Positions 18,961 to 53,147 of a DNA stretch of 64,000 bases are shown here, one piece after another (positions within the stretch are counted from its first letter, which is position 1; the number at the start of each line of letters is the position of its first letter). The stretch spans positions 4,797 to 68,796 of the forward strand of contig JAJZWS010000011.1 of NCBI GenBank assembly GCA_021846565.1, read 5' to 3'. Source of the DNA: Bacillota bacterium (GTDB lineage: Bacteria > Bacillota > Sulfobacillia > Sulfobacillales > JAIMBI01). Below the pieces are notes generated by a model. That model was given only the letters and a program-made list of their open reading frames with translations. It was not told the DNA's origin and did no database searches. Both the position numbers and the translations under genes were made by a program.

Positions 18961-19009
18961 CACGGCTTCGGTAGGGTCCGATCAGTCCCCGCGCTTGACG
19001 TGGCCGCCC

Positions 19010-19290: not shown

Positions 19291-19407
19291 CGTCTCCCTT
19301 CGCATGCGGGGGCATGCCCTGGTGACGGCACCGGGCTGACCCAACGGGCCTCGAGCCGGGAGGTCCCCGACCGCTCGCATCCACAGTCCCACAGCCGCCC
19401 TGGCATT

Positions 19408-21111: not shown

Positions 21112-21196
21112 AGGAATCCCTCCTCCACTCGTTCACTGCGCCCTAAAAGCCTGCGCGCCTTGTGGTCCCGGGAGGTCCGCCACGCGGGACTCCCAT

Positions 21197-37547: not shown

Positions 37548-37850
37548 TTAGGCATGGGAATGACAATCAGTCGGGGGCGTCCCCTCCCGGGGGGGTTCAG
37601 GAGGAACGAGGTCGGGAGGAGGCGCCGGCGCGTCCTCCTGCAAAGAGGCCATGCCGCTGGGGAAAAGCGTCGTGACGTCGATCGGCCAAGCCCTCGCGGT
37701 GGCTCCGCGGGTTTCGCCGATCGCGTCGCGCACCTGTTGCAGGCGCAGGAGGATGCGAAGCTTATCGGCGTACGGCAGGGCGGCCAGCGCCCGGCGCCGG
37801 CGCTGCTTGGCGGCCAGCGCCTCCTGCATGGCGGCCGGCAGCTCGGTCAT
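37548..37850 (-). CDS. Small hypothetical protein, downstream partner of the second NTase-fold gene
   Basis: Start MTELPAAMQEALAAKQRRRR at 37850 overlaps the upstream stop (ATGA). Helical N-half and a Pro-rich tail. No domain recognised. Confidence 0.4.
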   Translation of the reverse strand: MTELPAAMQEALAAKQRRRRALAALPYADKLRILLRLQQVRDAIGETRGATARAWPIDVTTLFPSGMASLQEDAPAPPPDLVPPEPPREGTPPTDCHSHA

Positions 37851-38341
37851 GGGGTCTCCTCCTGGGACGGCACGGACAGGCCATGGCGACCACAAATATC
37901 GGCTAGGCGGACCGTGTTCACAGAACCCTCGTCCATGAGCAACTGGACGCGCGCTCGATCCTTGAGGCGGCCTGTCTGGGCAGCCATGGCAATCAAGTGC
38001 TCAAGTGGTAAGACGCGCGTGGCCACCCCCTCGACGTCAACCAGGCGCGCCTGCTCCAACGCTTCTTCCACCAACGGATTGTAGGCAGGCAGAAACTGAA
38101 CCGGCACGCCCTCAATGACGATGCATTCGCCTTCGGGCTCATATCCGCGCTGTCGCAGCGCGTCATAGATCGGCGTGAGTGTCAGCAGCCCGCTGCTGGT
38201 TGGCAACACCACAAAGATATGCATATCATAGGTGACGGTCGGCTCGACGTAAAACATGGCGGCCATGGCACCGCCGATGGCATACCGGTGAACGATGCCC
38301 TGTCGCTCCAGTTCGTTGAGCACGGCGAGGGTTGCCTTCAT
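37847..38341 (-). CDS. Nucleotidyltransferase-fold protein with a degenerate catalytic motif
   Basis: MKATLAVLNELERQG..AIGGAMAAMFYVEPTVTYDMHIFV (GG..T.D.H in place of D.D) and VLPLEHLIAMAAQTGRLKDRARVQLL, typical of small NTase/AbiEii-like folds. Confidence 0.5.
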   Translation of the reverse strand: MKATLAVLNELERQGIVHRYAIGGAMAAMFYVEPTVTYDMHIFVVLPTSSGLLTLTPIYDALRQRGYEPEGECIVIEGVPVQFLPAYNPLVEEALEQARLVDVEGVATRVLPLEHLIAMAAQTGRLKDRARVQLLMDEGSVNTVRLADICGRHGLSVPSQEETP

Positions 38342-38892: not shown

Positions 38893-39414
38893 TCAGCGCG
38901 CGTCGATAAACCCGTACGCCGCCTCGGGCAGGTCAACGCCACCGATGGCCACCGGTCGCTCAGCCAGGCGCTGGCCGCCCATGTGTTCATAGAAGCGAAC
39001 GGTGGGGTTTTGGGTCAGCACCCAAACCACAAAGGGCATCAGGCCTGCGTGCCTAAGGCTTTCCGTCGTATGACGCCATAGGCGGGCACCCGTACCGAAA
39101 CCTTGGGCGGCCCGCGTTAGGTAGATCGAATACACCTCGCCTGGCCACCCGGGAAACGCCCCGCCGCGCTGGGGACCACCCGACGCATGACCCACAATCA
39201 CCCCGGAGCGCTCTGCCACCCACACGGTCGTGTCCCGATGGTCCAGCAGTCTCTGCCATCGGGCTTGCTGGCGCTCTGGATCCATCCCGTCCAAGAACCC
39301 ATCCGGGACAATACCCCGATAGGTCGTCCGCCAGCTTTCCACATGGGCCCGGGCGATGCCCGCCGCGTCGGTAAGCACGGCGGGGCGCACCACGACCGAT
39401 GCGGTGTCCTCCAC
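38893..39414 (-). CDS. GNAT-family N-acetyltransferase
   Basis: 173 aa. Acetyl-CoA binding pattern IYLTRAAQGFGTGARLW. Confidence 0.85.
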   Translation of the reverse strand: MEDTASVVVRPAVLTDAAGIARAHVESWRTTYRGIVPDGFLDGMDPERQQARWQRLLDHRDTTVWVAERSGVIVGHASGGPQRGGAFPGWPGEVYSIYLTRAAQGFGTGARLWRHTTESLRHAGLMPFVVWVLTQNPTVRFYEHMGGQRLAERPVAIGGVDLPEAAYGFIDAR

Positions 39415-39452: not shown

Positions 39453-41465
39453 CTACTCACTGGACCCCATCGCCATGGCGGCCGGCAGCGGGGTGGCGCG
39501 CATGCCCACCGCCGCGGCCAGCAGCTCCGTCACGTCGGTCACCCGCAGCCGATCATCCACCCCCAGCGCGGTGGCGGCCGCATGAAACATTGACACGTCC
39601 TTGGGACAGGCCACCACGAAGTGGGTAATGCCCGGGAGCGCCAACGCCTCGCGGATGCGCTGGTTGGCGGGACGCTCCACGATGCCGGTCTCATCCATCC
39701 AAATGCGGCCACCCCCTGCACCGCAGCAAAAGCTTTGCTCCCCATGCCGCGGCATTTCTCTGAGGTCCACCCCCAGCGCGCGCAGCAGCTCGCGCGGCGC
39801 TTCGGTGATGTGGTTCCATCGCCCCAGGTAGCACGGGTCATGATACGTGGCGCGAATCGGCACGGGCGTGACAGGCAGGCGGCCCTCCTGAATGAGGGCC
39901 AGAAATGCCTCCGTGTAGTGGAACACGGGCTTGTCGAACCCGAACTTCCGGTATTCATTCTTGAGGGCGTTCAGGGAGTGTGGATCGGTGGTGAACACCC
40001 GCTGGAAGGTGGCCTTCTCCAGGATCTTCAGGTTTTTCTGGGCCAGTGTTTCAAACAGGCCGTACTCCCCAATGCGCAGCGCGTCGTTGCCGGAGTTCAC
40101 CTCCCCCTCGTACAGGATCCCAAAGTCCACGCCAGCCCGATGCAGCAGCTCGCCCACCAGCGGGGTCATTTCGCGGGCACGGGGGTCTAACGCGGCAAAG
40201 TCCCCCACGAACCAGAGCCAGTCCACCGGTTCCTTGCGGGCGTCCTTGATGGGGAACTCCAGTCCCTTGGCCCACTCGGGACGCTTGCGCGCCGGTTGGC
40301 CAAACGAGTTGCCCTGGCGCTCCCAAGCCACCAGCACCTTCTGCGCCGCCGGATCCACGTCGCCGTCTTCGAGGAGCGCCGCACGGAGTCCGGCAATCTT
40401 GGGCACGTGCTCAATGAACACCGGACACGCCTTCTGGCAGGCACCGCACGTAGTGCAGGCCCACAGGGCTTCGCGGGACACGGCGCCACCCGCGAGCGGC
40501 GGAGCGTCGGCCGCCGGCCGCCCCCAGTCGCTCACCAGCCGGTCTCGCAGGTCCAGGATGACCATCTTGGGCGAAAGCGGCTGACCGGCGGCATTGGCGG
40601 GACATACGTCCTGGCAGCGCCCGCACTCCGTGCAGGTGAAAAGGTCCAGCACGTCCTTCCAGCGCATGTCATCGAACGAGCGGATGGCCATCGTCTCTTC
40701 AGGGGGCGACTCCACCAGCTCCCCGATGGGACCGAGCTTGCGAAAGAAGATGTTGGGCACGGCCAGCAGAATGTGAAAATGCTTGGAGTACGGGAGATAC
40801 GCCAAAAACGCGAACACCATCCCGATGTCCATCAGGTAGCCCACGGTGTAGCCCACCATCGCGCCCGTGGGCGTGGTCCAACCGAGGGCCCGCCACAGGT
40901 GGTACAAGCCGTTGCCAAGAAACTCGCTCTTAAGAGACGGGTCCGTCACATGGAAGAATGACGCCGCCACCACGGGGTAGAACGACTCATGCACAACGAT
41001 GCCCACCACGATGATCGCAATGAGCACCAAAATCATGTAAGCATCCCGCTCGTCAGAGCCATGGAAGCGGGCCGGCCGCAGCACGGCCCGATTGTACACG
41101 GCCATCAGCACGCCCACCAGCACCAGTGCCACCCACACATCGACCGCTAGGCTGAGCCACGGCCCGATGCCAAATCCCGGCCGAAACACCTGGCCGATGG
41201 TGCCCACGATGTCCAGCAGCAGCACAACGAATCCGCTGAAAATAAAGTAATGCAGGATGCCGGAGAAGGGGATGCGGACCATGCGGCGATGGCCAAACAC
41301 CTGGGTTCCCACCGAGAGGAGCCGCTCGCCGATCCGGTCCCACCGCACGACGGGCCGAGTCCGACGCATGACGTTCCAGATGGCCCGGCCCCGCACTCCA
41401 AAAACCCCGACGCTGGCCAGGGCCACCACGATGGTGGCGGCCACGAGCACGGTCCGCAGTGTCAT
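39453..41465 (-). CDS. Membrane-bound Fe-S oxidoreductase (EtfD/Emo-like ETF:menaquinone oxidoreductase; HdrD-like CCG domains)
   Basis: 670 aa. About 6 N-terminal TM helices, CTECGRCQDVCP and CTTCGACQKACP clusters, and C-terminal CCG domains (SFCCGAGGG). Immediately downstream of etfBA. Confidence 0.8.
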   Translation of the reverse strand: MTLRTVLVAATIVVALASVGVFGVRGRAIWNVMRRTRPVVRWDRIGERLLSVGTQVFGHRRMVRIPFSGILHYFIFSGFVVLLLDIVGTIGQVFRPGFGIGPWLSLAVDVWVALVLVGVLMAVYNRAVLRPARFHGSDERDAYMILVLIAIIVVGIVVHESFYPVVAASFFHVTDPSLKSEFLGNGLYHLWRALGWTTPTGAMVGYTVGYLMDIGMVFAFLAYLPYSKHFHILLAVPNIFFRKLGPIGELVESPPEETMAIRSFDDMRWKDVLDLFTCTECGRCQDVCPANAAGQPLSPKMVILDLRDRLVSDWGRPAADAPPLAGGAVSREALWACTTCGACQKACPVFIEHVPKIAGLRAALLEDGDVDPAAQKVLVAWERQGNSFGQPARKRPEWAKGLEFPIKDARKEPVDWLWFVGDFAALDPRAREMTPLVGELLHRAGVDFGILYEGEVNSGNDALRIGEYGLFETLAQKNLKILEKATFQRVFTTDPHSLNALKNEYRKFGFDKPVFHYTEAFLALIQEGRLPVTPVPIRATYHDPCYLGRWNHITEAPRELLRALGVDLREMPRHGEQSFCCGAGGGRIWMDETGIVERPANQRIREALALPGITHFVVACPKDVSMFHAAATALGVDDRLRVTDVTELLAAAVGMRATPLPAAMAMGSSE

Positions 41466-41466
41466 G

Positions 41467-42417
41467 CTAACCCGCCTCCCCGAGAAGCTCCGTCAAGAGC
41501 GGCATCAGTTCCAAGATGTCGCAGGTAGCGCCGTAGTGGGCCACCTCGAAGATAGGGGCCGCCGGATCGCTGTTGACCGCGACGATAATCTCGCTGTCTT
41601 TCATCCCCTGCAGGTGTTCGGGCGCCCCACTGATGCCCAGCGCCAGATAGAGCTTGGGCTTCACGGTCTGCCCCGACTTGCCCACCTGCCGCGCCCGGGG
41701 CAGCCAGCCCGCGTCGACCACGGGTCGCGAGCAGCTCACCACCGCCCCCAGCGCCTCCGCCAGCTCATCGGCCAGCTCCAGGTTGTCCGGGTCCTGGATG
41801 CCACGGCCCACACTCACCAGCACATCGGCCCGCGTGATGTCCACGTCCCCGGTTTCCGGCTCAATGGTCCGCACCAGTTCCATCGCGGATTCGGGCGCCA
41901 CCGCCACCTCGCGTACCGGGGTGCCGCCGGCCACCGCATCGTCCGCCGGCCAGGAGCCAGGCAGGACCGTCAGCACGGATCCCTCCGGCACCGCCACCTC
42001 CGCCACCAGCTTGCCCGCATACACCTGGCTGGTTGCGGTGAACTCCCCGCCTTCGACCGCTGTGAGGCTGGTCACATACGCCACCATGGGGCGGCCCTCG
42101 GCCGCCGCCGTAGCCGCGCCCAGGTCCATGCCCATGGTGGTATTGGCCAGCAGCACCAGGCCTGCCGACGTTTCGCGCACCATCTGGCGCAGCGCCGCCT
42201 CCGCCAGGGTGGGCACGTAGGGGTCGGCTCCCACCACCAGCACGGCGTCATCGGCGCCCGACGCCGCCAGGGCGCTTCGGGCCGCCTCGCCAAATCCCAG
42301 GGCCACGACCCGCGTCGACCGCGCTTGCGCCAGCTGGCGCGCGCGGGTTAACAGCTCCCCAGTCGCTGGGCTCATGGCATCGTTCTGCAACTCGACCACG
42401 ACGATAATCGGTCCCAT
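41467..42417 (-). CDS. etfA: Electron transfer flavoprotein alpha subunit
   Basis: 316 aa. C-terminal FAD-binding block KLYLALGISGAPEHLQGMKDSEIIVAVNSD. Confidence 0.92.
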   Translation of the reverse strand: MGPIIVVVELQNDAMSPATGELLTRARQLAQARSTRVVALGFGEAARSALAASGADDAVLVVGADPYVPTLAEAALRQMVRETSAGLVLLANTTMGMDLGAATAAAEGRPMVAYVTSLTAVEGGEFTATSQVYAGKLVAEVAVPEGSVLTVLPGSWPADDAVAGGTPVREVAVAPESAMELVRTIEPETGDVDITRADVLVSVGRGIQDPDNLELADELAEALGAVVSCSRPVVDAGWLPRARQVGKSGQTVKPKLYLALGISGAPEHLQGMKDSEIIVAVNSDPAAPIFEVAHYGATCDILELMPLLTELLGEAG

Positions 42418-42421
42418 GTCA

Positions 42422-43189
42422 TCAGCTCCTTAAGTGCTGTTCATCCAGAAGGGCCACGAGCGCCGCCGCCACCTCGGCCGCATCCCCTTCCCACATCGTG
42501 GCGTGTCCCTGCGCCTCGGGCCGGTAGAGCCGCTGCACGGCGAGCGTCGACTCCGCCGAAGGCGCACCGGCCTCCACCTCCTCCAGCGTTGCGGAGCGAG
42601 ACACCTGGCGAATGCGGGCGATGGGCACATAGCGGGGAGGTTTTTTCGCCGCCTGCACCCCCAGCACCAGGGGGGTGGCCGATCGAAACTCGGCCATGCG
42701 GCCGCCGGCATACTCCTGCACGAAGCTCACCGGGCCAGAACCCACTGCCACGTCGCGCACCACCGAGGCGTGCGGCCACCCCAGCATCCCCCCCAGCAAG
42801 CCGGCAATCTGCCCATCCAGGTCGTCCACAGCCTGGACGCCCGTCATGACCAGGTCGTACCCGGCGTCCGCCAGATAGTCCGCCAAGATGCGCGCTCGCT
42901 GTCGACCGGGCATTGTCCGGTCATAGTCGCCCACCAGCTTGACGGCGCGGTCGGCCCCTTTGGCCAGCGCAGCGTAAAGCATGTTGTCGATGTCACCGGT
43001 GTCCAGCGCCACCGCCGACACATGCGCCCCGGAGGCTTCTTTTAAGAGCAGCGCCTCTTCGAGGGCCTGGTCGTCCCACTCACTGGGCACATAGCTCAAG
43101 TCATCGACGGCCAACGCACGCCCCGATTCGTCCAGCTCCAACTCCTCCACCAGATCCGGGACATCCTTCACCAGCACGGCAATGCGCAC
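42422..43189 (-). CDS. etfB: Electron transfer flavoprotein beta subunit
   Basis: 255 aa. MRIAVLVKDVPD.. with ETF beta family pattern. Confidence 0.92.
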   Translation of the reverse strand: MRIAVLVKDVPDLVEELELDESGRALAVDDLSYVPSEWDDQALEEALLLKEASGAHVSAVALDTGDIDNMLYAALAKGADRAVKLVGDYDRTMPGRQRARILADYLADAGYDLVMTGVQAVDDLDGQIAGLLGGMLGWPHASVVRDVAVGSGPVSFVQEYAGGRMAEFRSATPLVLGVQAAKKPPRYVPIARIRQVSRSATLEEVEAGAPSAESTLAVQRLYRPEAQGHATMWEGDAAEVAAALVALLDEQHLRS

Positions 43190-43237
43190 CTCGAACCCTC
43201 CTCCTTGTCGCGTCGTCAGTTCTCGTTGCCCTTCAGT

Positions 43238-43750
43238 TCAGTGGCCCTGAGACGGCCATCGCTGGGCGGCCTGCTCCGCGACCTGCTGCACCATCTCCAC
43301 CTCCACCGGGGTAAAGGCGTCCCGTTCGGGTGCCAGCAGGACCAATACGGCCAGCACGCCCGGGCGCGTTACCGGCACGGCTACCGCTGACTGCGCCGCC
43401 GGATTGTCCAGGCGGTGCCCATGAAACATGCGCAGCAGCGGAACGATCTGTACCACGCGGTCCGCCGCGGCGGTGCCCACCAGGCCCTCATGCCATGGCA
43501 CGGTGAGCGCCACAGGGCCCCCCTGATGGGCCGCGAGCACCAGCCGAATGCCCGGCGGGTCCGGGGCGTACAGGCTGGCACTGACCAGAGACGGCCGCGC
43601 CTGCCACAAGACGGCACACACGCCCTGCAGGCGGCTGGACCATGGAGCCTCCTCCACGTCCAGCACTACCTGGGCCACCTCGACCACCTCGCGGACCGTA
43701 CTCCCGGGCCCTATGGCCAGGGTCGCCGCCACAACCCGGTCGGGCATCAA
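43238..43750 (-). CDS. Stand-alone GAF-domain protein embedded between the dsrE3-like gene and etfB
   Basis: 170 aa. GAF-like pattern (..SLYAPDPPGIRLVLAAHQG.. HEGLVGTAAADRVVQIV .. AVAVPVTRPGVLAVLVL). Start overlaps the DsrE3-like stop by 4 nt. Confidence 0.6.
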   Translation of the reverse strand: MMPDRVVAATLAIGPGSTVREVVEVAQVVLDVEEAPWSSRLQGVCAVLWQARPSLVSASLYAPDPPGIRLVLAAHQGGPVALTVPWHEGLVGTAAADRVVQIVPLLRMFHGHRLDNPAAQSAVAVPVTRPGVLAVLVLLAPERDAFTPVEVEMVQQVAEQAAQRWPSQGH

Positions 43751-44127
43751 AACGTGATGACGACGTCCGCCTCGGCCGCCATCTCGTTCAGTGCCGTGCC
43801 GCCCACCACGCCGGACACCTCAATCAAGTCGTCCAGGGTGCAGTCGTTCAGATCAAGGCTCGGGGCGCAGACGTAAAACTCCACGCCCGCCTCGCGGGCT
43901 TGATCCATGAAAAACTGCAGCGTGGATCCCTGCCCATACCCCTTGATGTAAAGCGATTCCGCTGCCCCTCGCTTGAGCAGGCTCGTGGCGGTGATGGTGA
44001 ACACCATCCGCGACTCCCCATCCATCAGCGCGGCGGTCGTGGCCAGAAAGAACGGGGAAGCCGACCTCTCCGGGGCTTCGACGCCCGTCGTGAGGATGTA
44101 GAGATACTTCTTGGTCTCGTCAGCCAT
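43747..44127 (-). CDS. DsrE/DsrF-family sulfur-relay protein (DsrE3-like)
   Basis: 126 aa. YLYILTTG..SPFFLATTAA.. and the putative active-site Cys in EFYVCAPSL. Confidence 0.8.
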   Translation of the reverse strand: MADETKKYLYILTTGVEAPERSASPFFLATTAALMDGESRMVFTITATSLLKRGAAESLYIKGYGQGSTLQFFMDQAREAGVEFYVCAPSLDLNDCTLDDLIEVSGVVGGTALNEMAAEADVVITF

Positions 44128-44183
44128 TGACTGCCTCCGTCCTATGGTTCATCGATTTTGCTCCCGTCCTGGTCCAATCCAGT

Positions 44184-44444
44184 TCACTTGGTCCGGCGGA
44201 TGCGAAACCGAAAGACCGAACCGTCCTGCTGGGACAGCAGGAGCTGGTGGCCGGTAGAGTTGGCAAACGCCTTGAAGTCGGCCATGGACCCTGGGTCCGT
44301 GCACTCCACCTCCACCACCTGACCCATCTCGACCCCCACGATTCCCTTCTTGGCCTTGATGACCGGCAACGGGCAGGCCAGCCCCTTGGCATCGATGCGG
44401 GCCGCGACCTCTACGGTTTGAACCTCTGCTTGCATCTCATCCAT
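44184..44444 (-). CDS. tusA: TusA-family sulfur carrier
   Basis: 86 aa. DAKGLACPLPVIKAKK (CPxP motif). Confidence 0.88.
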   Translation of the reverse strand: MDEMQAEVQTVEVAARIDAKGLACPLPVIKAKKGIVGVEMGQVVEVECTDPGSMADFKAFANSTGHQLLLSQQDGSVFRFRIRRTK

Positions 44445-44499
44445 CGCGATCAGCTCCCTTCTTGTGGAAACGGTTCATGCGACCGGTGATGCCCGGTCG

Positions 44500-45618
44500 T
44501 CAGGGTCCCGCGCGTGCGCCTCCCGCCGCGCGGTGGGGCTCGAGGACCCCTGTGGGATCGATGGCGACCGCCTGAGCCCAGGCGCGCCCGACATCGGCTG
44601 CCGTGACGCCCGGCACGCTGATGGTCGCCCAGGCGCGCTCCAGCCGCGGAAGATACGCCTCCGGCAACATGGGCGAACCCACCACCGCCTCGGCCACCCG
44701 GGCCAAGCCGTCGCGCGGCTCCACCAGGAAATCGCCCGCCAACAGCACATCGTCCACTCGGCCGTCGCACTCGCGCACGATGACCCGCACCAAGCCCCCC
44801 GGCGCCTTGGCGACCCCCTCGTACAGGCGCACCCCCTCCCGGATCTTGACGCCTGCCTGCACCCACCCCTCGGTGGACCCGTACGCATACACAAACGCCG
44901 GGTCGAACAGGAGCTCCGCATAGTGGCGGGTGGCCGCCTCTTCCGCGGTCGTCAGGACCCCGCTGTGCACGGGCTCGCCTAAGCGCTCCCCGAACGCGTC
45001 CACCAAGAGGGCCACGGCCTCGGGGCGGGACGGCATGGCGCTCCCCAGCTGCGCCCGCATCGTCGTCATGTAGTCGCGGAGGCTGCTCTGCATTTTGTCG
45101 CGGAACTTCTCCGAGGGCACTGCCAGCACCCGGGTCATGGTGTCCACGTCAAAGTCGAACATCAGGCTGCCCACGATGGCCAGGGCCCCTTCTAGCGTGA
45201 CGGCACCCGTCCCGCCGATCTTCTGAGCCCCGACGACAATGTCGTTGACGGGCCGGTGCTCGGCCGCGATGCCCATCCGGCGGTACGCATCCACCGGTGC
45301 TCCGAGGCATCGGTCGTACACCGCTTGGACGGGTTCGCTCCCTCGCGGCAGGATCAGGTGCCAAAACACTTGGTCGTGGTCCAACAGCACGGCACCTCCG
45401 CCCACCATGCGGCGGGCCACCGGAATGTCGTGCGCGGCGCAGTAGTCCCGATTGACCTCCCGGCTCGCCACCTGATGGTAGCCCACGCACACATACGGCC
45501 CGTCCGGGCTGACCGTGATGAGGGTCGGTTCATCGCCGGCCGCCATGGTGTGCGCCACCCCGTGATACACGGCCTGAGACAAGGGGCGCGACACCGTGCC
45601 GAGATCCACATGCCTCAT
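44500..45618 (-). CDS. Lipoate-protein ligase A-like enzyme (sLpl(AB)-type)
   Basis: 372 aa of the BPL/LplA/LipB family: GYHQ..REVN.., ARRMVGGGAVLLD, KIGGTGA. Adjacent to the GcvH-like genes. Confidence 0.85.
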   Translation of the reverse strand: MRHVDLGTVSRPLSQAVYHGVAHTMAAGDEPTLITVSPDGPYVCVGYHQVASREVNRDYCAAHDIPVARRMVGGGAVLLDHDQVFWHLILPRGSEPVQAVYDRCLGAPVDAYRRMGIAAEHRPVNDIVVGAQKIGGTGAVTLEGALAIVGSLMFDFDVDTMTRVLAVPSEKFRDKMQSSLRDYMTTMRAQLGSAMPSRPEAVALLVDAFGERLGEPVHSGVLTTAEEAATRHYAELLFDPAFVYAYGSTEGWVQAGVKIREGVRLYEGVAKAPGGLVRVIVRECDGRVDDVLLAGDFLVEPRDGLARVAEAVVGSPMLPEAYLPRLERAWATISVPGVTAADVGRAWAQAVAIDPTGVLEPHRAAGGARAGP

Positions 45619-45678
45619 GACGCGTTCCTCCTCGTGGTGACTGCCATCGTGGCTCCTCCGTTTCCCCGCCGCGCGGCA

Positions 45679-46140
45679 TCACGGAATGGGATCGGCGCAG
45701 CGCATGCACGTGAGGCCTTCTTCTTTGAGCTTGGCCCGATACGGGTCGACCGCGTCGGGTCCGTGCCGGAGCCCACTGGCCGCCCACGCCTCGCGACCCA
45801 GGTCGGGACGAAAGGTGAGCAGCCACCCCTCGCCATAGGGATCCCGATTCACCAGGGAGGGGTCCTCCAGCACCGCGGGATTGGCGTCCACCACCGAGCC
45901 GGGAAGCGGAGCGGGCACAGGACCCACCCACTTCCCCGACTCCACGGTGGCCACGCTCTGTCCCGCACGCACCGACTTGTTCGCCCGGACCCGCAGGTAC
46001 AGGAGCTTGCCCGCCCGCGTCTGCGCGGGGTCGGTCATCCCCAGCCGCACCGTGCCGTCGGGCCGGTCCTCCAGCCACACGTCCTGGTCGACGCGGTACC
46101 ACAGATGGTCCGGCAGTTCACAGGCAAACACGAAGGCCAT
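45679..46140 (-). CDS. lbpA: GcvH-like lipoate-binding protein (LbpA), copy 2, with a C-terminal CxxC tail
   Basis: Start MAFVFACELP with a GGAGGTGA RBS. Lipoyl-lysine motif VESGKWVGP. Tail ..KLKEEGLTCMRCADPIP. Confidence 0.8.
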   Translation of the reverse strand: MAFVFACELPDHLWYRVDQDVWLEDRPDGTVRLGMTDPAQTRAGKLLYLRVRANKSVRAGQSVATVESGKWVGPVPAPLPGSVVDANPAVLEDPSLVNRDPYGEGWLLTFRPDLGREAWAASGLRHGPDAVDPYRAKLKEEGLTCMRCADPIP

Positions 46141-46156
46141 ACCCTCACCTCCGTTT

Positions 46157-46630
46157 CTAGCTCGCGCAGTGGATCCCGTCCCGCTCCAACAGCTCGCGAT
46201 ACCGCGCGAGACCATCCGGCCCCCCTGCCAGTTCCTCGCGGTCCACGTCCCACGCGCTGGGTTTCACGCGGATGAGCCACCCGGCCCCGTAGGGATCGCG
46301 GTTCACCGTCTCGGGAGACGCTTTGAGCGCCTCATTCACGGCCACCACCTCGCCCGCCACGGGGGTGGGGATAGTGCCCACCCACTTACCCGACTCCAGG
46401 GTTCCGGCACTTTTCCCACGAGCCAGGGTTTTGCCCAGCCCTCGCAGGTTGACCATCACGATTTTGCCGGCCAGGTGCTGGGCCACATCGGTGAGACCCG
46501 CTTCCACCACGCCGTCGGCGTCCGGTCCGCGTACCCACACATGCTTTTCTGGCCAGTACAGCAAGTCGGCCGGTAATTGGCAACCATTCACTTGGTTCAC
46601 GTCGTGCCCTCCGTCCGCGGCTCCGCTCAT
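46157..46630 (-). CDS. lbpA: GcvH-like lipoate-binding protein (LbpA), copy 1, with a C-terminal Cys tail
   Basis: Start MSGAADGG with a GGGGGAGG RBS. Motif LESGKWVGT. Tail ..YRELLERDGIHCAS. Confidence 0.8.
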   Translation of the reverse strand: MSGAADGGHDVNQVNGCQLPADLLYWPEKHVWVRGPDADGVVEAGLTDVAQHLAGKIVMVNLRGLGKTLARGKSAGTLESGKWVGTIPTPVAGEVVAVNEALKASPETVNRDPYGAGWLIRVKPSAWDVDREELAGGPDGLARYRELLERDGIHCAS

Positions 46631-46670
46631 GACGTCCTCCCCCTCGGGTTCCTCTCGGATCAAGTTTGGG

Positions 46671-47939
46671 TCAGTCCACCAGGGCCATGGATTTGGCCAG
46701 CAACTCCGCAATGTCCATCACCTGAAGCCGGCCCGTGTTGCCCGTGGACTTCACGGCATCCTCAAACCGGGACACTTCGTACGGACAGGTGACGGCCAGC
46801 ACTTCGGCCCCGTACTCAATGGCTTCCAGCACCCGCTTCTCGGAGAGGCGCATGCTGGTGAACTCGGCGGTAAAGCTGTCCATCCACATGCCGCCGCCCC
46901 CGCCGCCACAACAGTACGCGTTTTCCCGGCACCGGCCCATCTCCACCAGCTCAAGGCCCGGAATAGCCTGCAAAAGCTGTCGCGGTGCCTCATATTCGCC
47001 GTTGTGGCGGCCCAGGTAGCAGGGGTCGTGGAACGTGACGCGCCAGGGCAGCTCCCGCCGAAACGCCATGTCGCCGATCCGCGGGGCCAGGAACTGCGTG
47101 TAGTGCCGGGTGGGCCACTCCCCGCCAAACTTCGGGTACTCATGCAGCAGCGCGTTGTACGCATGCGGGTCGGTGACCAGGACCTCGTTGAACATGTATT
47201 GGGACAGCGTTTTGATGTTGTGCTCCGCCAGCATCTCAAACAGCCCCGCCTCACCCGCCATGCGCTGCGAGTCCCCGGAGCACTTTTCTTCGCGACCCAG
47301 AATACCAAAATCTACGCCCAGCGCGTTCAGGATGCGGGCCAGCGCGACCGACGCCTCCTGGCCTCGGGGATGGTAGGCCGGATAGCACTCCACGAACCAC
47401 AGGACGTCCACCGGGTCGGGGTGTTGGCTCATGATGGGGACCGGAACGCCCGCCTGCTTCACCCAGTCGGCCCGCTTGCGCGCAGGCTCCCCCAGCGGAT
47501 TGCCATACCGCGCCGTATTTTCGAAGGCGGACAGCAGTTCCTGGGGCGCCTGGCCATCCGCCACTGCCTGCTCGCGCACGGCCGGCATGATTTGAATCAT
47601 GTTGACCTCTTTGGGACACACGCGCAGGCAATTGGAGCACGTGGTGCACAGCCACAGATCGGGGCTGTCCAGCAAAGGGGTGCCCAGCTGCGTGCGGCGA
47701 AACACCTTGCGCGGAGAGAAGTCGCCGACCGTGTCGACGGGGCACACCGCCGTGCACTTGCCGCACTGATAGCACCAGCCCAGCGACTCGGCGCCCGGGA
47801 TGGCGGTGACCTCGTCCAACACCGACAAGTCATAGCCCGTAATGGGGCGCGGTTCAAACATGCGGCTCCACTGCGGCGTGAGCGCCACGCCGTCCACCAT
47901 CACCGTCTCACGCTCGACGGCCTGCGCCTTCTCAGCCAC
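46671..47939 (-). CDS. Fused HdrC-like / HdrB-like Fe-S subunit (sHdrB3 type)
   Basis: 422 aa. N-half CYQCGKCTAVCP and CTTCSNCLRVCP. C-half has two CCG-type domains (EKCSGDS.., YCCGGGGG). Confidence 0.8.
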   Translation of the reverse strand: MAEKAQAVERETVMVDGVALTPQWSRMFEPRPITGYDLSVLDEVTAIPGAESLGWCYQCGKCTAVCPVDTVGDFSPRKVFRRTQLGTPLLDSPDLWLCTTCSNCLRVCPKEVNMIQIMPAVREQAVADGQAPQELLSAFENTARYGNPLGEPARKRADWVKQAGVPVPIMSQHPDPVDVLWFVECYPAYHPRGQEASVALARILNALGVDFGILGREEKCSGDSQRMAGEAGLFEMLAEHNIKTLSQYMFNEVLVTDPHAYNALLHEYPKFGGEWPTRHYTQFLAPRIGDMAFRRELPWRVTFHDPCYLGRHNGEYEAPRQLLQAIPGLELVEMGRCRENAYCCGGGGGGMWMDSFTAEFTSMRLSEKRVLEAIEYGAEVLAVTCPYEVSRFEDAVKSTGNTGRLQVMDIAELLAKSMALVD

Positions 47940-48639
47940 GCTCCATCGCCTCCCATCGGTTCACGCCCAACAACGTCTGCAGCACCACGGGGAACGGAGG
48001 AAACACGCGCGTGAATTCTTCGGTCAGCTTCCAGGCCGCCATGGTGAACATGTACACCGCGTATACGGCCCCGAGCGCCACCAGCGGCCGGTGCTCGTCC
48101 GACACGGCGGTCAGCCGGCGCGTGCTGTCCAACACCGAGCCCAGAAAGCGCACGTCCTGCCGAATCGCGCCGTAAGCCTCCACCAACCCCACGTCGCGAA
48201 GTCCCTCCATATCGCCGGTCACCAGCGGCAGGGCCCCGGTCCCGCCCTCCCGGCGGTACACCCATCGGCCCCACCACGGCCACTCCGGCGCATGAATGTT
48301 CAGCCAGTACGTGGCCCAGTCCAACAGCCAATCCGGCGTCGCCGGCCGCTCGGCGAGGTGAGCCACCAGCCCCTCCCCGTCGCCCGCCGCCGCCAACTCC
48401 CAGATGGGCTCCAACTCCGGCTGCCAGCGGATCCGGTCCGCCGGGTTAACCCGGCGCGACACCGGCGCCAGCGCCCACCGGGCCGCCCACCCAACAGCCT
48501 CTCGATGTACGCGGGCGGTGCGACGCTGCAGAGCGGCGTCGAGCGCGGGGAGCGCCGGCGGCTCCAGGAGCGGCTCCGCCTTGTCCAGGAACTCCTGGAC
48601 TGCGGCGCCATCCACCACCATCCCGCTCACCGGATTCAT
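47932..48639 (-). CDS. Conserved hypothetical protein in the sHdrH position
   Basis: 235 aa with no recognisable domain. Overlaps hdrA (4 nt) and the B3 gene (8 nt), as the 'hyp' gene does in shdr loci. Confidence 0.55.
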   Translation of the reverse strand: MNPVSGMVVDGAAVQEFLDKAEPLLEPPALPALDAALQRRTARVHREAVGWAARWALAPVSRRVNPADRIRWQPELEPIWELAAAGDGEGLVAHLAERPATPDWLLDWATYWLNIHAPEWPWWGRWVYRREGGTGALPLVTGDMEGLRDVGLVEAYGAIRQDVRFLGSVLDSTRRLTAVSDEHRPLVALGAVYAVYMFTMAAWKLTEEFTRVFPPFPVVLQTLLGVNRWEAMERG

Positions 48640-49697
48640 GCCGACTGGGCGACCAGGCGGCGGAGCAGGCTGACCGTGCGCATCGCCGCCGCTCCTCCCA
48701 TCGAGACCGTATCTTCCAGGTCTTTCGGGCCCGCCGCCGCGCCCGCGACAAACACCCCGGGCACAGGCGTGCTGACCGTGTCCAGCGGCTCGCCCACCGT
48801 GGCCAAAAAGCCATGCGGCTCCCGGGGGAGCTGGAAGATGCGCGCCATCTCAAGTGTTCCTGCAGACGGCTCCATGCCCACCGACAGCACCACTAAATCC
48901 ATCGGCACCTCCACGGGTCGGCCCATGGTGGTGTCCTCGCCCTTGATGAGCAACTGGTCTCCCTTCTTGATCACCTCGGTCACGATGCCGCGAATGTAGT
49001 TGACCTTGTGTTCCTCCTGCGCCTTCCAGTACAGCTGGTCCTCCCAGAACCCGTACATCCGCATGTCGATGTAGAAGATGAACACTTTGGCGTCCGGCAC
49101 CAAGTGCTTCACCTCGATGGACTGCTTCGACGCAATCCCGCAACACACTTTCGAGCAGTACTGGTTGCCGATGCGCCGGTCGCGCGATCCGACGCACTGG
49201 ATGAACGCAACCGAGCGGGGCGGGGCCCCAGTCGATGGACGCACAAACCGGCCTGTCTGCATCATGCGCTCGGCGTCGACCAGCGTGATGACGTCGTCGT
49301 ACTCGTAGTACCCATACATCTGGGTTTCGCGGCCCGGGTCAAAGTGCTGAAAGCCCGTGGCCACCACGACGGCACCGACGGCTTCCACGGACCGCGTGCC
49401 GTCATGCTCCAGCGTGACCTGAAAGTTCCCCGCCGCACCTTCGCTCGCCACCACCCGCGTCGTGGTGCGCACGTCGACCAGGGGATGGCCCTCCACCGCC
49501 CCCTTGACCTCCGCCATCAGCTCGCGCGTGGGCGCGAGATGCGGCGTCAGGGTGGCGTAGGACTCCCAGGGCGTTCCTCCCAGCGTATCCTTCGCCTCCA
49601 CCAAGATCACGGGTGTCCCCAGGTCCGCGATGCCCCGCGCGGCCTCCAGCCCGGCCGGTCCTCCACCCACCACCAGCACGCGATCCGCCGTCGCCAT
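48636..49697 (-). CDS. sHdrA-like FAD/Fe-S flavoprotein
   Basis: Start MATADRVLVVGGGPAGLEAA with an AAAGGAGG RBS. Cluster motif CVGSRDRRIGNQYCSKVCC. About 353 aa (short sHdrA type, not the methanogen HdrA). Confidence 0.88.
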   Translation of the reverse strand: MATADRVLVVGGGPAGLEAARGIADLGTPVILVEAKDTLGGTPWESYATLTPHLAPTRELMAEVKGAVEGHPLVDVRTTTRVVASEGAAGNFQVTLEHDGTRSVEAVGAVVVATGFQHFDPGRETQMYGYYEYDDVITLVDAERMMQTGRFVRPSTGAPPRSVAFIQCVGSRDRRIGNQYCSKVCCGIASKQSIEVKHLVPDAKVFIFYIDMRMYGFWEDQLYWKAQEEHKVNYIRGIVTEVIKKGDQLLIKGEDTTMGRPVEVPMDLVVLSVGMEPSAGTLEMARIFQLPREPHGFLATVGEPLDTVSTPVPGVFVAGAAAGPKDLEDTVSMGGAAAMRTVSLLRRLVAQSA

Positions 49698-49735
49698 AAC
49701 GCGCCTCCTTTGCCCCCTGGTGTCGTTCTGTCGGC

Positions 49736-50956
49736 TTAGAGCACAGACTCCCACGTGAGATAGTCCATCGTGCCCGCCTCGATTTTCTTGACGTCTTCCT
49801 GAAACTCGGCCCATGCCTGCTCCGCATCGATGCCCATCTTGGCCAGAAGCGGTCGATAGTCCGTGGAATGCCAGTGCAGCTGCGTGACGCGAAACGGGTG
49901 GGCCCCCATGGCCAGCGCCGCAAACTGCGACTCGGACATCACCGGCACCCCCACATTGCGTCCGTGTGCCTGAGCCGCAAACTGGCTCTTGTCCAGCGAC
50001 GTCACGCAGCCCGTGTCGTGGGTCAGCACCACGTCAGGATTGGCTTCTTCCTTCATGACCTCGATCTTGCGGAGTGTGGCAAAGGACCGTGTGAAGTCCC
50101 GCTGCACCAGGATGTGTCGGAACCCGAACCCGCAACAGTCATACCAAGTGGAGTAGTCCGCCACCTGCGCCCCCAGCGCCTGCACCACGCCGGTCACCAC
50201 CGCCGTGCGCTGTCCGCCATAAATTTCCGGGTCATAGATGGCATCGCCCGACTGCAGCTTGTAGTAGTGGCAGGCCGGGTGCACCGTCGACACGATCGGA
50301 CTTAAGTCGTGCACCACGCGCTCCTGCAACTGGTCGCGCACTGCGTACATCCACTCACTGTAGTGCACGATCTCCTCCGGGATGACGAAGGGGCGTCCCA
50401 GCCGCTCAATGATGCCCCGCACCTGGCGCCGCAGCGCGTGGTCGTGCACCAGCTCGTGGCGCACTTCTTTGTAGTGGCCGAAGCTGGTGCCGCAGTGGAT
50501 GAGCGGGAAGTACCCGGTTTCGTAAGCGGCGGCGAAGTTGCGCATCGCCACCGCGGCCTGCGCAGCCTGATTGGACGTGGCCGAGGCGTAGTAGTTCCAA
50601 GCGGTGCACGACGTTTGGTCGCGGGGGTCGAAGTAGTCATAGCCCAGCACGCGGTTCAGCCAAAAGATCGACGTCGAATACCCCGGAATGTGCCCGCACT
50701 GTCCGCAGCTCTTGTGGTGCCACGTCCGCTCGTACGGGATTTTCTTCATCCGCCCGTACTTGGTAGGCGCTTCATAGTACGGTTCGGGCACGCGCTGGAC
50801 AATCCACTCGCCCTCGCGCTCAAGCTGCAGCACCGCCTCGCGCAAGTCCTCTTCCGGAGCCTCCCCGGGGTCGGGGCGAAACGTCTTCGTGGTTTCCACC
50901 GAAGTGCCCCGCACCGGAACCGTCCGATCTGTCGTCTTGGTCGTCGACGTGGCCAT
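49736..50956 (-). CDS. sHdrB1-like CCG-domain subunit
   Basis: GGGAGGA lies 7 nt before ATG 50956 (the ORF track extends to 50983). CGQCGH.., CTAWNYY.. and YDCCGFGFRH are CCG-domain elements. Confidence 0.85.
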   Translation of the reverse strand: MATSTTKTTDRTVPVRGTSVETTKTFRPDPGEAPEEDLREAVLQLEREGEWIVQRVPEPYYEAPTKYGRMKKIPYERTWHHKSCGQCGHIPGYSTSIFWLNRVLGYDYFDPRDQTSCTAWNYYASATSNQAAQAAVAMRNFAAAYETGYFPLIHCGTSFGHYKEVRHELVHDHALRRQVRGIIERLGRPFVIPEEIVHYSEWMYAVRDQLQERVVHDLSPIVSTVHPACHYYKLQSGDAIYDPEIYGGQRTAVVTGVVQALGAQVADYSTWYDCCGFGFRHILVQRDFTRSFATLRKIEVMKEEANPDVVLTHDTGCVTSLDKSQFAAQAHGRNVGVPVMSESQFAALAMGAHPFRVTQLHWHSTDYRPLLAKMGIDAEQAWAEFQEDVKKIEAGTMDYLTWESVL

Positions 50957-50982
50957 GGTGAGATCCTCCCTTCGCGTCTTCA

Positions 50983-51675
50983 TCAGTCCGACACCGCGGC
51001 ATCAATGCCGCTGTCCTCCAGGGCGTCGTCCATGATTTCCTCCATGATGTCGTGGAGTCCCTCGTCCAGCTGGGCAATCATGTCCAGCGTGCCGGTCCAC
51101 TTCCAGATGGCGTACAGCTCCCGCATGGTCCGCTCTTCCACATCCCACGAGAGGGCCGTGGTGTGCATGGTCTCCGGCGGCAGCGCGCGGCGCCACACCG
51201 CGAGATGGTCGGCCACATCCTTCACCTGCGGGCCCCAGTCGGGGAAGGCGTCCTCCTGCAGCATGTCGGGCGACACCTGCGTGCCGGTGGTCATGATCTT
51301 GTAGATGATGCGGGTGTACCCCGCGAGCGCTTCTTTGGTCGTGCGGAGCCCGTTGTTGACCGCCACCTCGCGCATGATGGTGATAAGCCCGCCCGGGTTG
51401 TTCCCACGGGGACAGCGGAGGCACGAGAAGCACTGCGAGCAGTTCCATACGTCGTCGTTCATCTGCTCGTACACCAGATCCACGTCCTCGCGGGCCAGCG
51501 CCTGGGCAATCTTGCGGGGAGAGAAATCGTAGAAGCGGGCTGACGGGCAGGCCGCGACGCAGATCCCGCACTCGTAGCACCCATACAGATAGGTGTCAAA
51601 GCGCGCATCCTGCACAACCTCACGATAAAGGCGCGTCTTCTCTTCCGCCGGCACATCCGCGTAAGCCTTCTCCAT
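50983..51675 (-). CDS. sHdrC1-like 2x[4Fe-4S] subunit
   Basis: Start MEKAYADVPAEEK with a GGGGGGAG RBS. Clusters CYECGICVAACP and CSQCFSCLRCP. Confidence 0.85.
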   Translation of the reverse strand: MEKAYADVPAEEKTRLYREVVQDARFDTYLYGCYECGICVAACPSARFYDFSPRKIAQALAREDVDLVYEQMNDDVWNCSQCFSCLRCPRGNNPGGLITIMREVAVNNGLRTTKEALAGYTRIIYKIMTTGTQVSPDMLQEDAFPDWGPQVKDVADHLAVWRRALPPETMHTTALSWDVEERTMRELYAIWKWTGTLDMIAQLDEGLHDIMEEIMDDALEDSGIDAAVSD

Positions 51676-51740
51676 CGGCTGCTCCCCCCATCTGTCGAAA
51701 CAGGTCACGAAAACCGATAGAGCCCGCAGGATGGCGGGCT

Positions 51741-52268
51741 CTACACGAACAGCTGGATCTTGGCGTCGCGGGCGTAGTCCAGGAACGTGGCTGCCCCCAC
51801 CACGTCTTCCACTTCCGGAATCAGGTCCTCGCGCTTCATCCCCATCACGTCCATCGTCATTTGGCAGGCCACCATGTGGACGCCCACCTCATGTGCCGTG
51901 CCGACAAACTCCCGAATGGACATGACCTTCGCCTTGGCAAACTGGGTGCGCATCATCGTGGACACCATGCGCGTTCCCCCGGGCACCATGCCCGCCACCT
52001 TGGCCATCGACGGCATGCTGGGATTGCCCGCGATCGAGATGTCCAGCGAATCGATCTTGTGCCGGTTGATGATGTCGAGCCCCCAGAACGTGAAAAACAG
52101 CATGGAATCCATGTCCATGGCCGCCGCCGCGGTCGCCAGGACAAACGGTGGATAGGCCATGTCCAAAGATCCCTTGGAACAGACAATGGCCAGCCGATCT
52201 TGCTGCACCTCTGGTCCTCCTCTCGCCGTTGGGTCACCGTATACCAATACCCCCACGGGTATCACCAT
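51741..52268 (-). CDS. DsrE/DsrF-like family protein (DsrE2-like), first gene of the shdr string
   Basis: ATG 52268 with an AAGGTG RBS. LAIVCSKGSLDMAYPPFVLATAAAAMDMDSMLFFTFWGL is typical of DsrE-related 'peroxiredoxin-like' proteins in hdr loci. The upstream part of the 51741..52559 ORF looks non-coding. Confidence 0.72.
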   Translation of the reverse strand: MVIPVGVLVYGDPTARGGPEVQQDRLAIVCSKGSLDMAYPPFVLATAAAAMDMDSMLFFTFWGLDIINRHKIDSLDISIAGNPSMPSMAKVAGMVPGGTRMVSTMMRTQFAKAKVMSIREFVGTAHEVGVHMVACQMTMDVMGMKREDLIPEVEDVVGAATFLDYARDAKIQLFV

Positions 52269-52354: not shown

Positions 52355-52440
52355 CGTCCGGTGGCTCAACGGCAGGCCGTGCTACGATGAAGAGGCGAGG
52401 CGCCGGACGAATTTCACCGAGAAGGAGGGCGAATACCCGT

Positions 52441-52791
52441 ATGGGTATAAAGACAAGCCAAACCATCCTGCTATCGCGCGCAGCGGAGCTGTTTCCGGGG
52501 CTGGCGGACATGCTGTCGCCGATCAACGAAGCGCTCCGGCGCATCAACATGGGCCGCATGGAGTTTTTGCCCTACGACCATCCCGTGGCGGGATATCAGG
52601 TGCATATGCGTGCCGAACTCACGCCGCAGGGCCCGGACCGCCCCCCGCAGGTGGGGCACTGGCAACTCGAAATCCAGCGGGACGACTCCCCGCACGTCCT
52701 GTATCTCCATGGCAAGACCGGTGCGGACGGCGAACTGGGTGAGCTCTGGTCCCCCCAGGACGCGCCACTCGCCAACGGGCCAGCCCAGTGA
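52441..52791 (+). CDS. Hypothetical 116-aa protein divergent from the shdr string
   Basis: AAGGAGGG lies 11 nt before ATG 52441. High third-position GC. No domain recognised. Confidence 0.5.
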   Translation: MGIKTSQTILLSRAAELFPGLADMLSPINEALRRINMGRMEFLPYDHPVAGYQVHMRAELTPQGPDRPPQVGHWQLEIQRDDSPHVLYLHGKTGADGELGELWSPQDAPLANGPAQ

Positions 52792-53147
52792 AAGGCGAGG
52801 AGGAACTGCGCACCGCCTACTGGGAGGATTGCCGCACCGACCCGCGCTTCCCGCTGTGGGTGATTTTTCGACGCGTGGGGCAATCGCCGACCGTCCAGGA
52901 CGGATTGCCCTACGTGCGCCCGGCTGGACCCGATCTGCCCAGCGTGCTCAAGCGTCTGGAGCAGTGGCCCCGTCTGTCCGAGCTTGCGCAGCACCTGGGC
53001 CTGTCCACTGACGACTGCCGTGCGGTGCTTTGGCATCTCATCTGGCGACTGGAACGCGGTGCGGCGGATCCGGCCTGGGTGGACTGGAACGCTCGCGTCG
53101 ACGCGGCGTGGGGTTCGGAGGGCGATCCGCCGCTTGGGTCCGAGTGA
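52788..53147 (+). CDS. Hypothetical 119-aa protein with a possible HTH (LSELAQHLGLSTDDCRAVLWHLIWRLE) and two Cys
   Basis: GTG start overlapping the upstream stop (GTGA). The helix-turn-helix-like stretch resembles ArsR/MarR-type recognition regions. Cys14 and Cys77 are the only cysteines. Confidence 0.45.
   Translation: MKGEEELRTAYWEDCRTDPRFPLWVIFRRVGQSPTVQDGLPYVRPAGPDLPSVLKRLEQWPRLSELAQHLGLSTDDCRAVLWHLIWRLERGAADPAWVDWNARVDAAWGSEGDPPLGSE

Follow-up and report, generated by a model that had tools for sequence, protein, structure and literature searches.

Two types of shdr gene cluster have been defined in the literature, of which type II has the arrangement shdrC1B1AHB3-etfAB-emo and is recognized operationally by the presence of shdrC1B1AHB3 together with etfAB in one syntenic cluster (PMC11094781). 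Type II systems have been counted in 130 GTDB assemblies that span 13 phyla, are the sole type among sHdr-containing Bacillota, and were already known to be housed by spore-forming members of that phylum (PMC11094781). For Sulfobacillus acidophilus, Justice et al. (2014) drew an "Hdr cluster IIb" comprising gcvH, hdrABC, a hypothetical gene, dsrE, tusA, lpl, etfAB and a long membrane "HdrC" (PMC4378227 Fig. 4). Here we describe a string of genes at positions 39453-52208 of a 64-kb stretch of Bacillota DNA (contig JAJZWS010000011.1, positions 4,797 to 68,796; hereafter the window), and conclude, with a probability of roughly 85%, that it encodes the type II sHdr-LbpA system of a Thermaerobacter sp. 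metagenome-assembled genome (MAG), orthologous gene-for-gene to the S. acidophilus cluster. The architecture itself is not new: it belongs to comparative genomics already published, and the same 15-gene order has been published for S. acidophilus.

Pfam, NCBIfam and independent gene calls agree on 15 minus-strand genes, all co-directional, in the order dsrE2, shdrC1, shdrB1, shdrA, shdrH, shdrB3, two copies of lbpA, slpl(AB), tusA, dsrE3, a gene for a GAF-like protein, etfB, etfA and emo. With refined starts, the successive intergenic spacings from dsrE2 to emo are 65, 26, 38, -4, -8, 40, 16, 60, 55, 56, -1, 48, 4 and 1 nucleotides (nt), the widest gap thus being 65 nt and the overlaps 1-8 nt. 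An initial annotation, made from the sequence without database searches, had spoken of sixteen genes, which is one more than its own list contains; its account of co-directional minus-strand genes with short gaps and 1-8 nt overlaps was accurate, and its family assignments proved correct. The GC content of the window is 63-72%. Identical proteins occur on contigs of three other MAG assemblies (GCA_028065455.1, GCA_027419435.1 and GCA_027331685.1), where independent gene calls return the same 15 genes; NCBI labels the organism on a contig with these identical proteins as Thermaerobacter sp., an uncultivated MAG with 66% GC.

The placement of this locus among type II systems, as the initial annotation had proposed, follows from its composition and from its relatives. 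The genes shdrC1, shdrB1, shdrA, shdrH, shdrB3, etfA and etfB lie co-directionally within 9.3 kb, and the 670-residue emo gene begins 1 nt past etfA, which corresponds to the published delineation (PMC11094781). We compared the locus with others, in part by mapping synteny with tblastn over 80 genome loci; in what follows L086 denotes S. acidophilus (TPY) and L089 the Bacillota relative GCA_021820485.1. The S. acidophilus "Hdr cluster IIb" agrees with the window in all 15 genes, their order and their orientation, including a 163-residue unannotated protein between dsrE3 and etfB, and in two uncultivated relatives, L089 and L090, the 15-gene order is also identical to that of the window. The fused subunit sHdrB3 is 82% identical to its S. 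acidophilus counterpart, and 76-79% identical to those of Kyrpidia and Hydrogenisulfobacillus. That all carrier genes are contiguous, which had been put forward as a distinguishing point of this locus, is true but not distinctive, being common to S. acidophilus, L089 and L090. Further afield, the core is common to 24 other type II loci from many phyla, and the map places it in Chloroflexota, Actinomycetota, Bacteroidota, KSB1, Planctomycetota, Marinisomatota, SAR324 and archaea, where the carrier and lipoate genes vary in position. Relative to the type I systems of Hyphomicrobium denitrificans and Aquifex aeolicus (shdrC1B1AHC2B2), the locus has sHdrA, sHdrC1, sHdrB1, sHdrH, LbpA, sLpl(AB), TusA and DsrE carriers in common, but it has the fusion sHdrB3, with a single complete noncubane site, in place of C2 and B2; further, it adds etfAB and emo, and lipS1, lipS2 and lipT are not adjacent.

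Among the core subunits, sHdrA (48636-49697; 353 residues, Pyr_redox_2) was assigned to its class by a comparison of PDB matches and NCBIfam scores. It aligns end to end with the crystal structure of H. denitrificans sHdrA (6TJR, E 1.9e-84), and its motifs GGGPAG, CVGSRDx8CSKxCC and CVGSRDRRIGNQYCSKVCC fit the short sHdrA form, a flavoprotein of ~350 residues with an FAD site and a CxGxRDx6-8CSxxCC [4Fe-4S] signature. Methanogen HdrA aligns with it over residues 104-343 only (E ~1e-60), and sHdrA scores 213-272 bits against HdrA equivalog models where the cut-offs are 1100-1400. The ferredoxin-like sHdrC1 (50983-51675; 230 residues, two [4Fe-4S] sites; Fer4_8, Fer4_17, Fer4_9) is HdrC-like, yet falls far under the HdrC equivalog cut-off of NCBIfam, and is 56-83% identical to its type II orthologs. 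The proposed catalytic subunit sHdrB1 (49736-50956; 406 residues, with a CCG domain in Pfam) aligns with methanogen HdrB at E 8.5e-18, retains the C-terminal CCG cysteines while the N-terminal set is changed, and is 66-85% identical across type II loci. The position of sHdrH (47932-48639) is held by a conserved hypothetical protein of 235 residues that matched no family in Pfam or NCBIfam; a 23-37% identical open reading frame (ORF) occupies this position in every type II locus. Identity as a methanogenic Hdr, Qmo or Tfr enzyme, which the initial annotation had named as a finding that would overturn its reading, was considered and rejected, given that the corresponding NCBIfam equivalogs all score far below their cut-offs and that 6TJR is the best match of sHdrA.

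The resemblance of sHdrA to the methanogen HdrA core (E 1e-60), and the status of HdrA-like flavoproteins and electron-transfer flavoproteins (ETF) as classic bifurcation modules, raise the alternative that the system is reductive, or performs flavin-based electron bifurcation or confurcation in the manner of methanogenic HdrABC or of bifurcating Etf, instead of forming a downhill chain from sulfur to quinone. Already at the level of the core this is disfavored, as sHdrA is short (353 residues) and lacks the ferredoxin-type domains of HdrA; the hosts of type II systems are, moreover, aerobic sulfur oxidizers (PMC11094781). The evidence from the ETF and its membrane partner, given below, points the same way.

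Lipoate-binding proteins and sulfur carriers complete the sHdr-LbpA complement. Two GcvH-like proteins are encoded side by side (copy 1, 46157-46630, 157 residues, GCV_H E 3e-33; copy 2, 45679-46140, 153 residues, GCV_H E 6e-28), and both contain an ESGKW segment, which in copy 1 aligns with ESVKA of Escherichia coli GcvH and so marks the lipoyl lysine (K64). It could be argued that these proteins and the neighboring ligase serve ordinary glycine cleavage or 2-oxoacid metabolism, the Hdr-like genes being unrelated neighbors, and one of the two does narrowly pass PRK01202, a broader subfamily model, with 119.3 bits for a cut-off of 117. However, both proteins miss the NCBIfam gcvH equivalog cut-off of 115.85 bits, at 89 and 63 bits; copy 2 lies under all GcvH cut-offs; neither gcvT nor gcvP was seen where the window is annotated; and over 20 loci from different phyla keep the lbpA pair linked to shdr genes. 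We regard a glycine cleavage role as scarcely credible, and their identification as LbpA, with lipoylation predicted from the conserved lysine, as supported. The initial annotation had listed a genuine glycine cleavage system as a second observation that would refute it; neither this nor a methanogenic-type affiliation of the Hdr-like proteins was found, so the sHdr-LbpA identity stands at the level of sequence.

The ligase, sLpl(AB) (44500-45618; 372 residues), joins an LplA catalytic domain (PF21948, E 1e-34, residues 25-209) and a C-terminal LplB-like domain in one chain, as reflected by NCBIfam matches to LplAB (9e-29) and to LplB (1.8e-9 at residues 271-350). As to lipoate maturation, none of the stop-to-stop ORFs of 150 residues or more in the 64-kb window contains a CxxxCxxC motif, such as a radical-SAM gene of the lipS1/S2 type would encode. 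This bears out the earlier remark that lipS1, lipS2 and lipT are missing there, but not its use as a point that stands out, since relatives share the trait: lipS1/S2 were likewise not found within 10 kb on either side of sHdrB3 in L005, L086 and L087. In 12 non-Bacillota type II loci, two radical-SAM genes lie beside slpl and lbpA, and lipS1, lipS2 and lipT may be located elsewhere in the genome from which the window derives. Directly after emo, at 18314-21278, L089 has a second lipoate-maturation set without equivalent in the window, in which a gene for IscA-like Fe-S biogenesis is accompanied by two more genes for LplA-type ligases, a third GcvH-like gene and a radical-SAM gene.

Of the carriers, TusA (44184-44444; 86 residues) presents the Cys-Pro-x-Pro motif as GLACPLP and is recognized as PF01206 in gene calls and by NCBIfam TusA (1e-12); a longer, overlapping ORF at 44120-44392 was set aside as a candidate for TusA, having no Pfam match. 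DsrE3 (43747-44127; 126 residues, PF02635 E 5e-12) is 38-71% identical to its type II orthologs. DsrE2 (51741-52208; 155 residues, PF13686 E 1e-45) matches the NCBIfam SulfCarrDsrE2 model over its full profile at 1.7e-38, under the cut-off. Its start had been placed at ATG 52268, but is most likely GTG 52208, which is preceded by GAGAGGAGGA, lies behind a GGAGGA ribosome-binding site, and yields the N-terminus VQQDRLA, to be compared with MQDRLA and VQEDRLA in orthologs.

The proteins proposed to carry electrons away from the core are those for which the comparison adds most detail. The subunit sHdrB3 (46671-47939; 422 residues) is an HdrC2-HdrB2 fusion with a Fer4 dicluster region at residues 56-113 followed by CCG domains, and type II fusions of this kind have been described as able to bind one noncubane cluster only (PMC11094781). 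Consistent with that description, its second CCG set is complete (C307, C343, C344 and C385), while the first keeps C185 and C220 only, with D257 and A260 in place of the other two cysteines; the invariant residues are C185, C220, D257, H259, A260, C307, C343, C344, C385 and E388. The soluble half of EMO is 39% identical to sHdrB3. The latter is thereby a paralog, in soluble form, of EMO's cytoplasmic domain and has a single noncubane site that is complete, and on these grounds we propose it as the site of EtfAB docking and reduction.

EtfB (42422-43189; 255 residues, PF01012) and EtfA (41467-42417; 316 residues, PF00766 E 1.6e-34 and PF01012) apparently form a non-bifurcating ETF. The best structural match of EtfB is the non-bifurcating ETF of Methylophilus methylotrophus (1O94, E 4.6e-32), far ahead of the bifurcating 5OL2 (E 3.9e-15), and it reads VQAVDDLDGQIAG where 5OL2 has RQAIDGDTAQVGP, the DGDTAQVGP-type motif of the latter being absent.

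The emo gene (39453-41465; 670 residues) encodes an EtfD-like ETF:menaquinone oxidoreductase (EMO) with a transmembrane cytochrome b domain, Fer4 sites and CCG domains. Structural and functional work on the EtfD/EMO of Mycobacterium smegmatis has established that it connects ETF with menaquinone (PMC13083937), and the structure of an EMO-ETF complex has been reported from Syntrophus aciditrophicus (bioRxiv 10.64898/2026.08.18.745454). The protein encoded in the window aligns with M. smegmatis EtfD (9OJN_A) at E 2e-90 from residues 41 to 660, across both the membrane and soluble parts, and shares with EtfD/EMO proteins the order of its parts, with the membrane region at the N-terminus, then two Fer4 sites and then CCG domains, as well as, in the window, a gene position directly after etfBA. 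Its proximal heme b ligands are conserved (H72, equivalent to His78 of M. smegmatis, and H229/H231 in SKHFH, equivalent to SKHLH), as are all eight cubane cysteines of the two sites and the noncubane D2 ligands C545, C580, C581, C620 and H496; the fifth D2 cysteine (C712 in M. smegmatis) is Asp623. It differs from EtfD/EMO in lacking the long disordered C-terminal tail, in its proposed source of electrons (sulfur oxidation instead of beta-oxidation), and in the loss of the ligands to the distal D1/FeS4 cluster, a linear [3Fe-4S] cluster in M. smegmatis and a [4Fe:5S] cluster in Syntrophus: C503, C538, C581 and C584 of M. smegmatis are replaced by D422, N457, D494 and S497. By this ligand set the EMO of the window is predicted to be a D1-less variant like FadF and DgcB, homologs which have been argued to take ETF electrons at the D2-equivalent cluster (PMC13083937).

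This signature extends well beyond the window. Our ligand table covers 36 EMO homologs from the fetched loci, and all 23 sHdr-linked EMOs that cover these positions are D1-less and have the aspartate at the last D2 position, as do those of stand-alone modules comprising a B3-like gene, etfBA and emo; generic EtfAB-linked EMOs, by contrast, keep all these cysteines. Further, the distal-heme histidine of the Syntrophus EMO is an aspartate (Asp213) in all six Bacillota EMOs, which argues for a mono-heme, downhill enzyme. As that histidine is used in the reverse redox loop of the Syntrophus EMO, its absence, together with the affinities of EtfB, makes a reductive or bifurcating system very unlikely, and the reading of the locus as a downhill sulfur-oxidizing chain is retained.

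A more serious competitor is the possibility that B3, EtfAB and EMO form an independent electron-transfer module, which serves another donor or regenerates oxidized lipoamide on LbpA, and which is merely co-located with the sHdr core instead of being the main exit of sulfur oxidation. In type I systems, sHdrB2 is regarded as a disulfide reductase (PMC11094781), and at four loci (L031, L033, L034 and L057, for example L033 9938-14979), hosted by Chloroflexota, Verrucomicrobiota and Acidobacteriota, we observed a B3-like gene (46-48% identical), etfB, etfA and a D1-less emo with no shdrC1B1AH. Such four-gene modules support the notion of B3-like, EtfBA and EMO proteins as one unit, and by the same token lend this alternative its appeal. 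Against it, B3 directly follows shdrH in every type II locus, in the window with an overlap of 8 nt; type II systems are without shdrC2B2, such that B3 replaces a core subunit; and the etfBA-emo linkage to the core is retained across at least 10 phyla despite rearrangements. We therefore consider a separate role improbable, albeit less so than bifurcation, and favor the sHdr core as the source of electrons. Accepting this, we infer that ETF would shuttle from sHdrB3, its donor, to EMO, its acceptor. The route from ETF via EMO to menaquinone, as the initial annotation also reasoned, gains support from the EtfD homology described above, and restates a proposal attributed to Kuempel et al. (2024), as it is cited in PMC11094781.

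The resulting scheme would comprise five steps. Judging from family membership and the type I literature, sulfane sulfur would be passed via TusA, DsrE2 and DsrE3 to lipoylated LbpA, which the single-chain sLpl(AB) is predicted, from its family, to lipoylate or octanoylate. The core of sHdrA, sHdrB1 and sHdrC1 would then oxidize the bound sulfur to sulfite in the cytoplasm, by analogy with the model in the literature, and the electrons might leave through sHdrB3 at the proposed site of EtfAB docking and reduction. Finally, on the strength of homology with EtfD/EMO, reduced EtfAB would be reoxidized by EMO, the likely path running through one noncubane cluster, two cubane clusters and the proximal heme b to menaquinone. 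Superimposed on these steps, the divergent promoter region ahead of dsrE2, bracketed by two palindromes of the CsoR/CstR type, is the probable site of expression control, and a hairpin after dsrE2 may uncouple the level of dsrE2 from that of the other 14 genes.

The two palindromes are ATACCCCCACGGGTAT (52247-52262, 39-54 nt upstream of the dsrE2 GTG), a candidate CsoR/CstR-type operator, and ATACCCGTATGGGTAT (52433-52448), which overlaps the start codon of a divergent gene. Both are perfect copies of ATACCC-N4-GGGTAT, of which the 64 kb contain only these two where 0.05 would be expected by chance. In a search of 87 loci, the exact sequence was confined to the window's own species; in L090 a one-mismatch copy, ACACCCGTATGGGTAT, was found by eye at the same place upstream of dsrE2. 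Published operators of CsoR and CstR are G/C-tract pseudopalindromes of the form 5'-TAC-N9-GTA-3' (PMC8643695, PMC3902906), exemplified by ATATACCCTTATGGGGTATAT for CstR of Streptococcus mitis, and the palindromes of the window, present at two sites, likewise consist of G/C tracts flanked by TAC...GTA in a promoter region. Regulation of sulfur oxidation by a member of this family has precedent in Thermus, where it is exerted by TTHA1953 (PMC10318464). Taken together, the palindrome pair suggests persulfide-responsive control of the CstR type.

On the plus strand, two small genes diverge from dsrE2, as they do in S. acidophilus. The first (52441-52791; 116 residues) has no match in Pfam, and a HMMER search of 1.84 billion representative proteins recovered just 10 clusters of its family, which offered no functional clue. 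The second (52788-53147; 119 residues) is likewise without a Pfam family; it is helical, with a possible helix-turn-helix at residues 50-91, and its AlphaFold2 model is of low confidence (pLDDT 57). Orthologs of both occur in L086, L089, L090 and L005, at 47-55% identity for the first and 43-50% for the second, which means that the pair adjoins all five Bacillota type II clusters, at 43-55% identity; in the loci examined from other phyla neither was found. Beyond the two genes, three relatives carry a two-Cys, His-less CsoR-family gene (CstR-like, PF02583), S. acidophilus being among those with a CstR-like gene at this point, whereas in the window MazG and RlmH stand there. Beside the CstR-like gene, upstream of the cluster, we also observed a divergent TusA-like gene (weak PF01206 match) in L086 (4294-4599) and L089 (3344-3787), with no counterpart in the window.

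The hairpin (51717-51744, minus strand) has a perfect 11-bp stem over the dsrE2 stop codon, followed by CGGTTTTCGT, and a minimum free energy of -23.9 kcal/mol (z -3.2 relative to shuffled sequences). It is possibly a partial terminator or an mRNA stabilizer between dsrE2 and shdrC1. Scans for intrinsic terminators and promoters gave counts not above shuffled expectation.

The GAF-like protein (43238-43747; 169 residues, GAF_2 PF13185 E 3e-10) had been noted at the outset as embedded in the string. This was borne out, and the gene is of greater interest than was then stated. Homologs occur at the same position in S. acidophilus (L086), L089, L090 and L005, giving five Bacillota loci with the window. 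The S. acidophilus protein at this position is only ~28% identical to that of the window. A word-indexed search returned just 8 homologs among 5.8 billion proteins, and the gene is unmentioned in PMC11094781 and PMC4378227. Profile comparison with the PDB links it to structures of the free Met-R-sulfoxide reductase (fRMsr), namely 3KSF, 1F5M, 3MMH and 1VHM (E 1e-23 to 1e-28). Like fRMsr (MsrC/YebR), it consists of a single GAF domain of ~165 residues with the framework GxxL(V/I)xxxQG...G(L/V)xGTAA...Q.VP...F.GH...VPV. The three fRMsr cysteines (one catalytic, two resolving), however, are replaced by A, V and D, and the protein is also without two features that the aligned fRMsr sequences conserve, namely the glutamate within SEIVVP and the DxD segment. 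An active fRMsr was rejected on account of these lost cysteines; with the acidic residues gone as well, reduction of methionine sulfoxide is not to be expected. Its sequence identifies the protein as a degenerate, presumably non-catalytic member of the fRMsr/YebR branch of GAF domains.

Several observations weigh against parts of the account given so far. The 64 kb contain no lipoyl synthase, be it LipS1/S2 or LipA, as a source of the dithiolane for LbpA. In sHdrB1, several of the N-terminal cluster ligands of HdrB are missing. The last cysteine of the noncubane CxxC is an aspartate in EMO and a glutamate in sHdrB3, such that the chemistry of these clusters may differ from that in EtfD. Both the direction of electron flow and the contact between sHdrB3 and ETF are read from homology alone. 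On the regulatory side, the palindromes have the spacing TAC-N8-GTA, against N9 in the literature operators examined, and the 64-kb window has no CsoR-family or cstR-like gene. Lastly, the hairpin past dsrE2 could divide the string between two transcripts and, with its weak U-tract, leaves a single 12.8-kb transcript less than assured.

The surroundings of the string contain further genes that may bear on its physiology. A GNAT acetyltransferase gene (38893-39414) lies 38 nt past emo on the same strand, beyond the stretch first annotated as the cluster; in S. acidophilus, MutS2 takes its place. Past it lie genes for a 164-residue protein (37847-38341, minus strand) with a weak match to the nucleotidyltransferase-like DUF2204, and for a 100-residue protein (37548-37850, minus strand). 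These three genes may be co-transcribed with the shdr string. Spore-germination genes (GerA, GerAC and Spore_permease) are located at ~29.7-33.6 kb, 6-9 kb downstream of emo, and make the earlier description of the host as an apparent endospore former a reasonable one, the trait being typical of the lineage. Adjoining them, ~10 kb downstream of emo, is a stand-alone gene for a 132-residue rhodanese (29281-29679, plus strand), possibly an extra sulfur transferase. More distantly, a set of three molybdoenzyme genes (11796-16387, minus strand), adjoined by a LysR gene, encodes a 970-residue molybdopterin subunit, a 220-residue Fe-S subunit with four clusters and a 321-residue membrane subunit of the DmsC type. 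The molybdopterin subunit has no twin-arginine signal (N-terminus MALRKETVEP...CYMCACRCG). This cytoplasm-facing layout is reminiscent of the sulfite-oxidizing enzyme SoeABC, which would presumably consume the sulfite delivered by sHdr. The set could equally be a reductase of the thiosulfate, tetrathionate or polysulfide type, and its best NCBIfam match is a partial one to PhsA.

Type II systems are widespread and biochemically still untested, and well-resolved examples such as this one may help in the design of experiments. What the present locus adds are refinements of a known system: the pairing of a D1-less EMO with sHdrB3, a Cys-less fRMsr-like GAF protein, two accessory genes and candidate operators of the CstR type. 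As sHdrB3 and the sHdr-linked EMO are paralogs, both without the distal Fe-S cluster of EtfD, a docking place for ETF is predicted on each side of the transfer. The Bacillota clusters emerge with three conserved accessory genes which have so far gone undiscussed. More speculatively, we tentatively suggest that the type II system of Sulfobacillia-type Bacillota might be larger than, and wired differently from, the published one, with ETF running between a D1-less sHdrB3 donor and an sHdr-specific clade of mono-heme EMOs, with the GAF protein and the two small proteins as functional parts, and with a persulfide switch of the CstR type; we hold this broader view to be doubtful as a whole. If it were true, then the GAF protein would act as a former sulfoxide-binding pocket put to a new use, which senses or holds a sulfur-oxygen intermediate.

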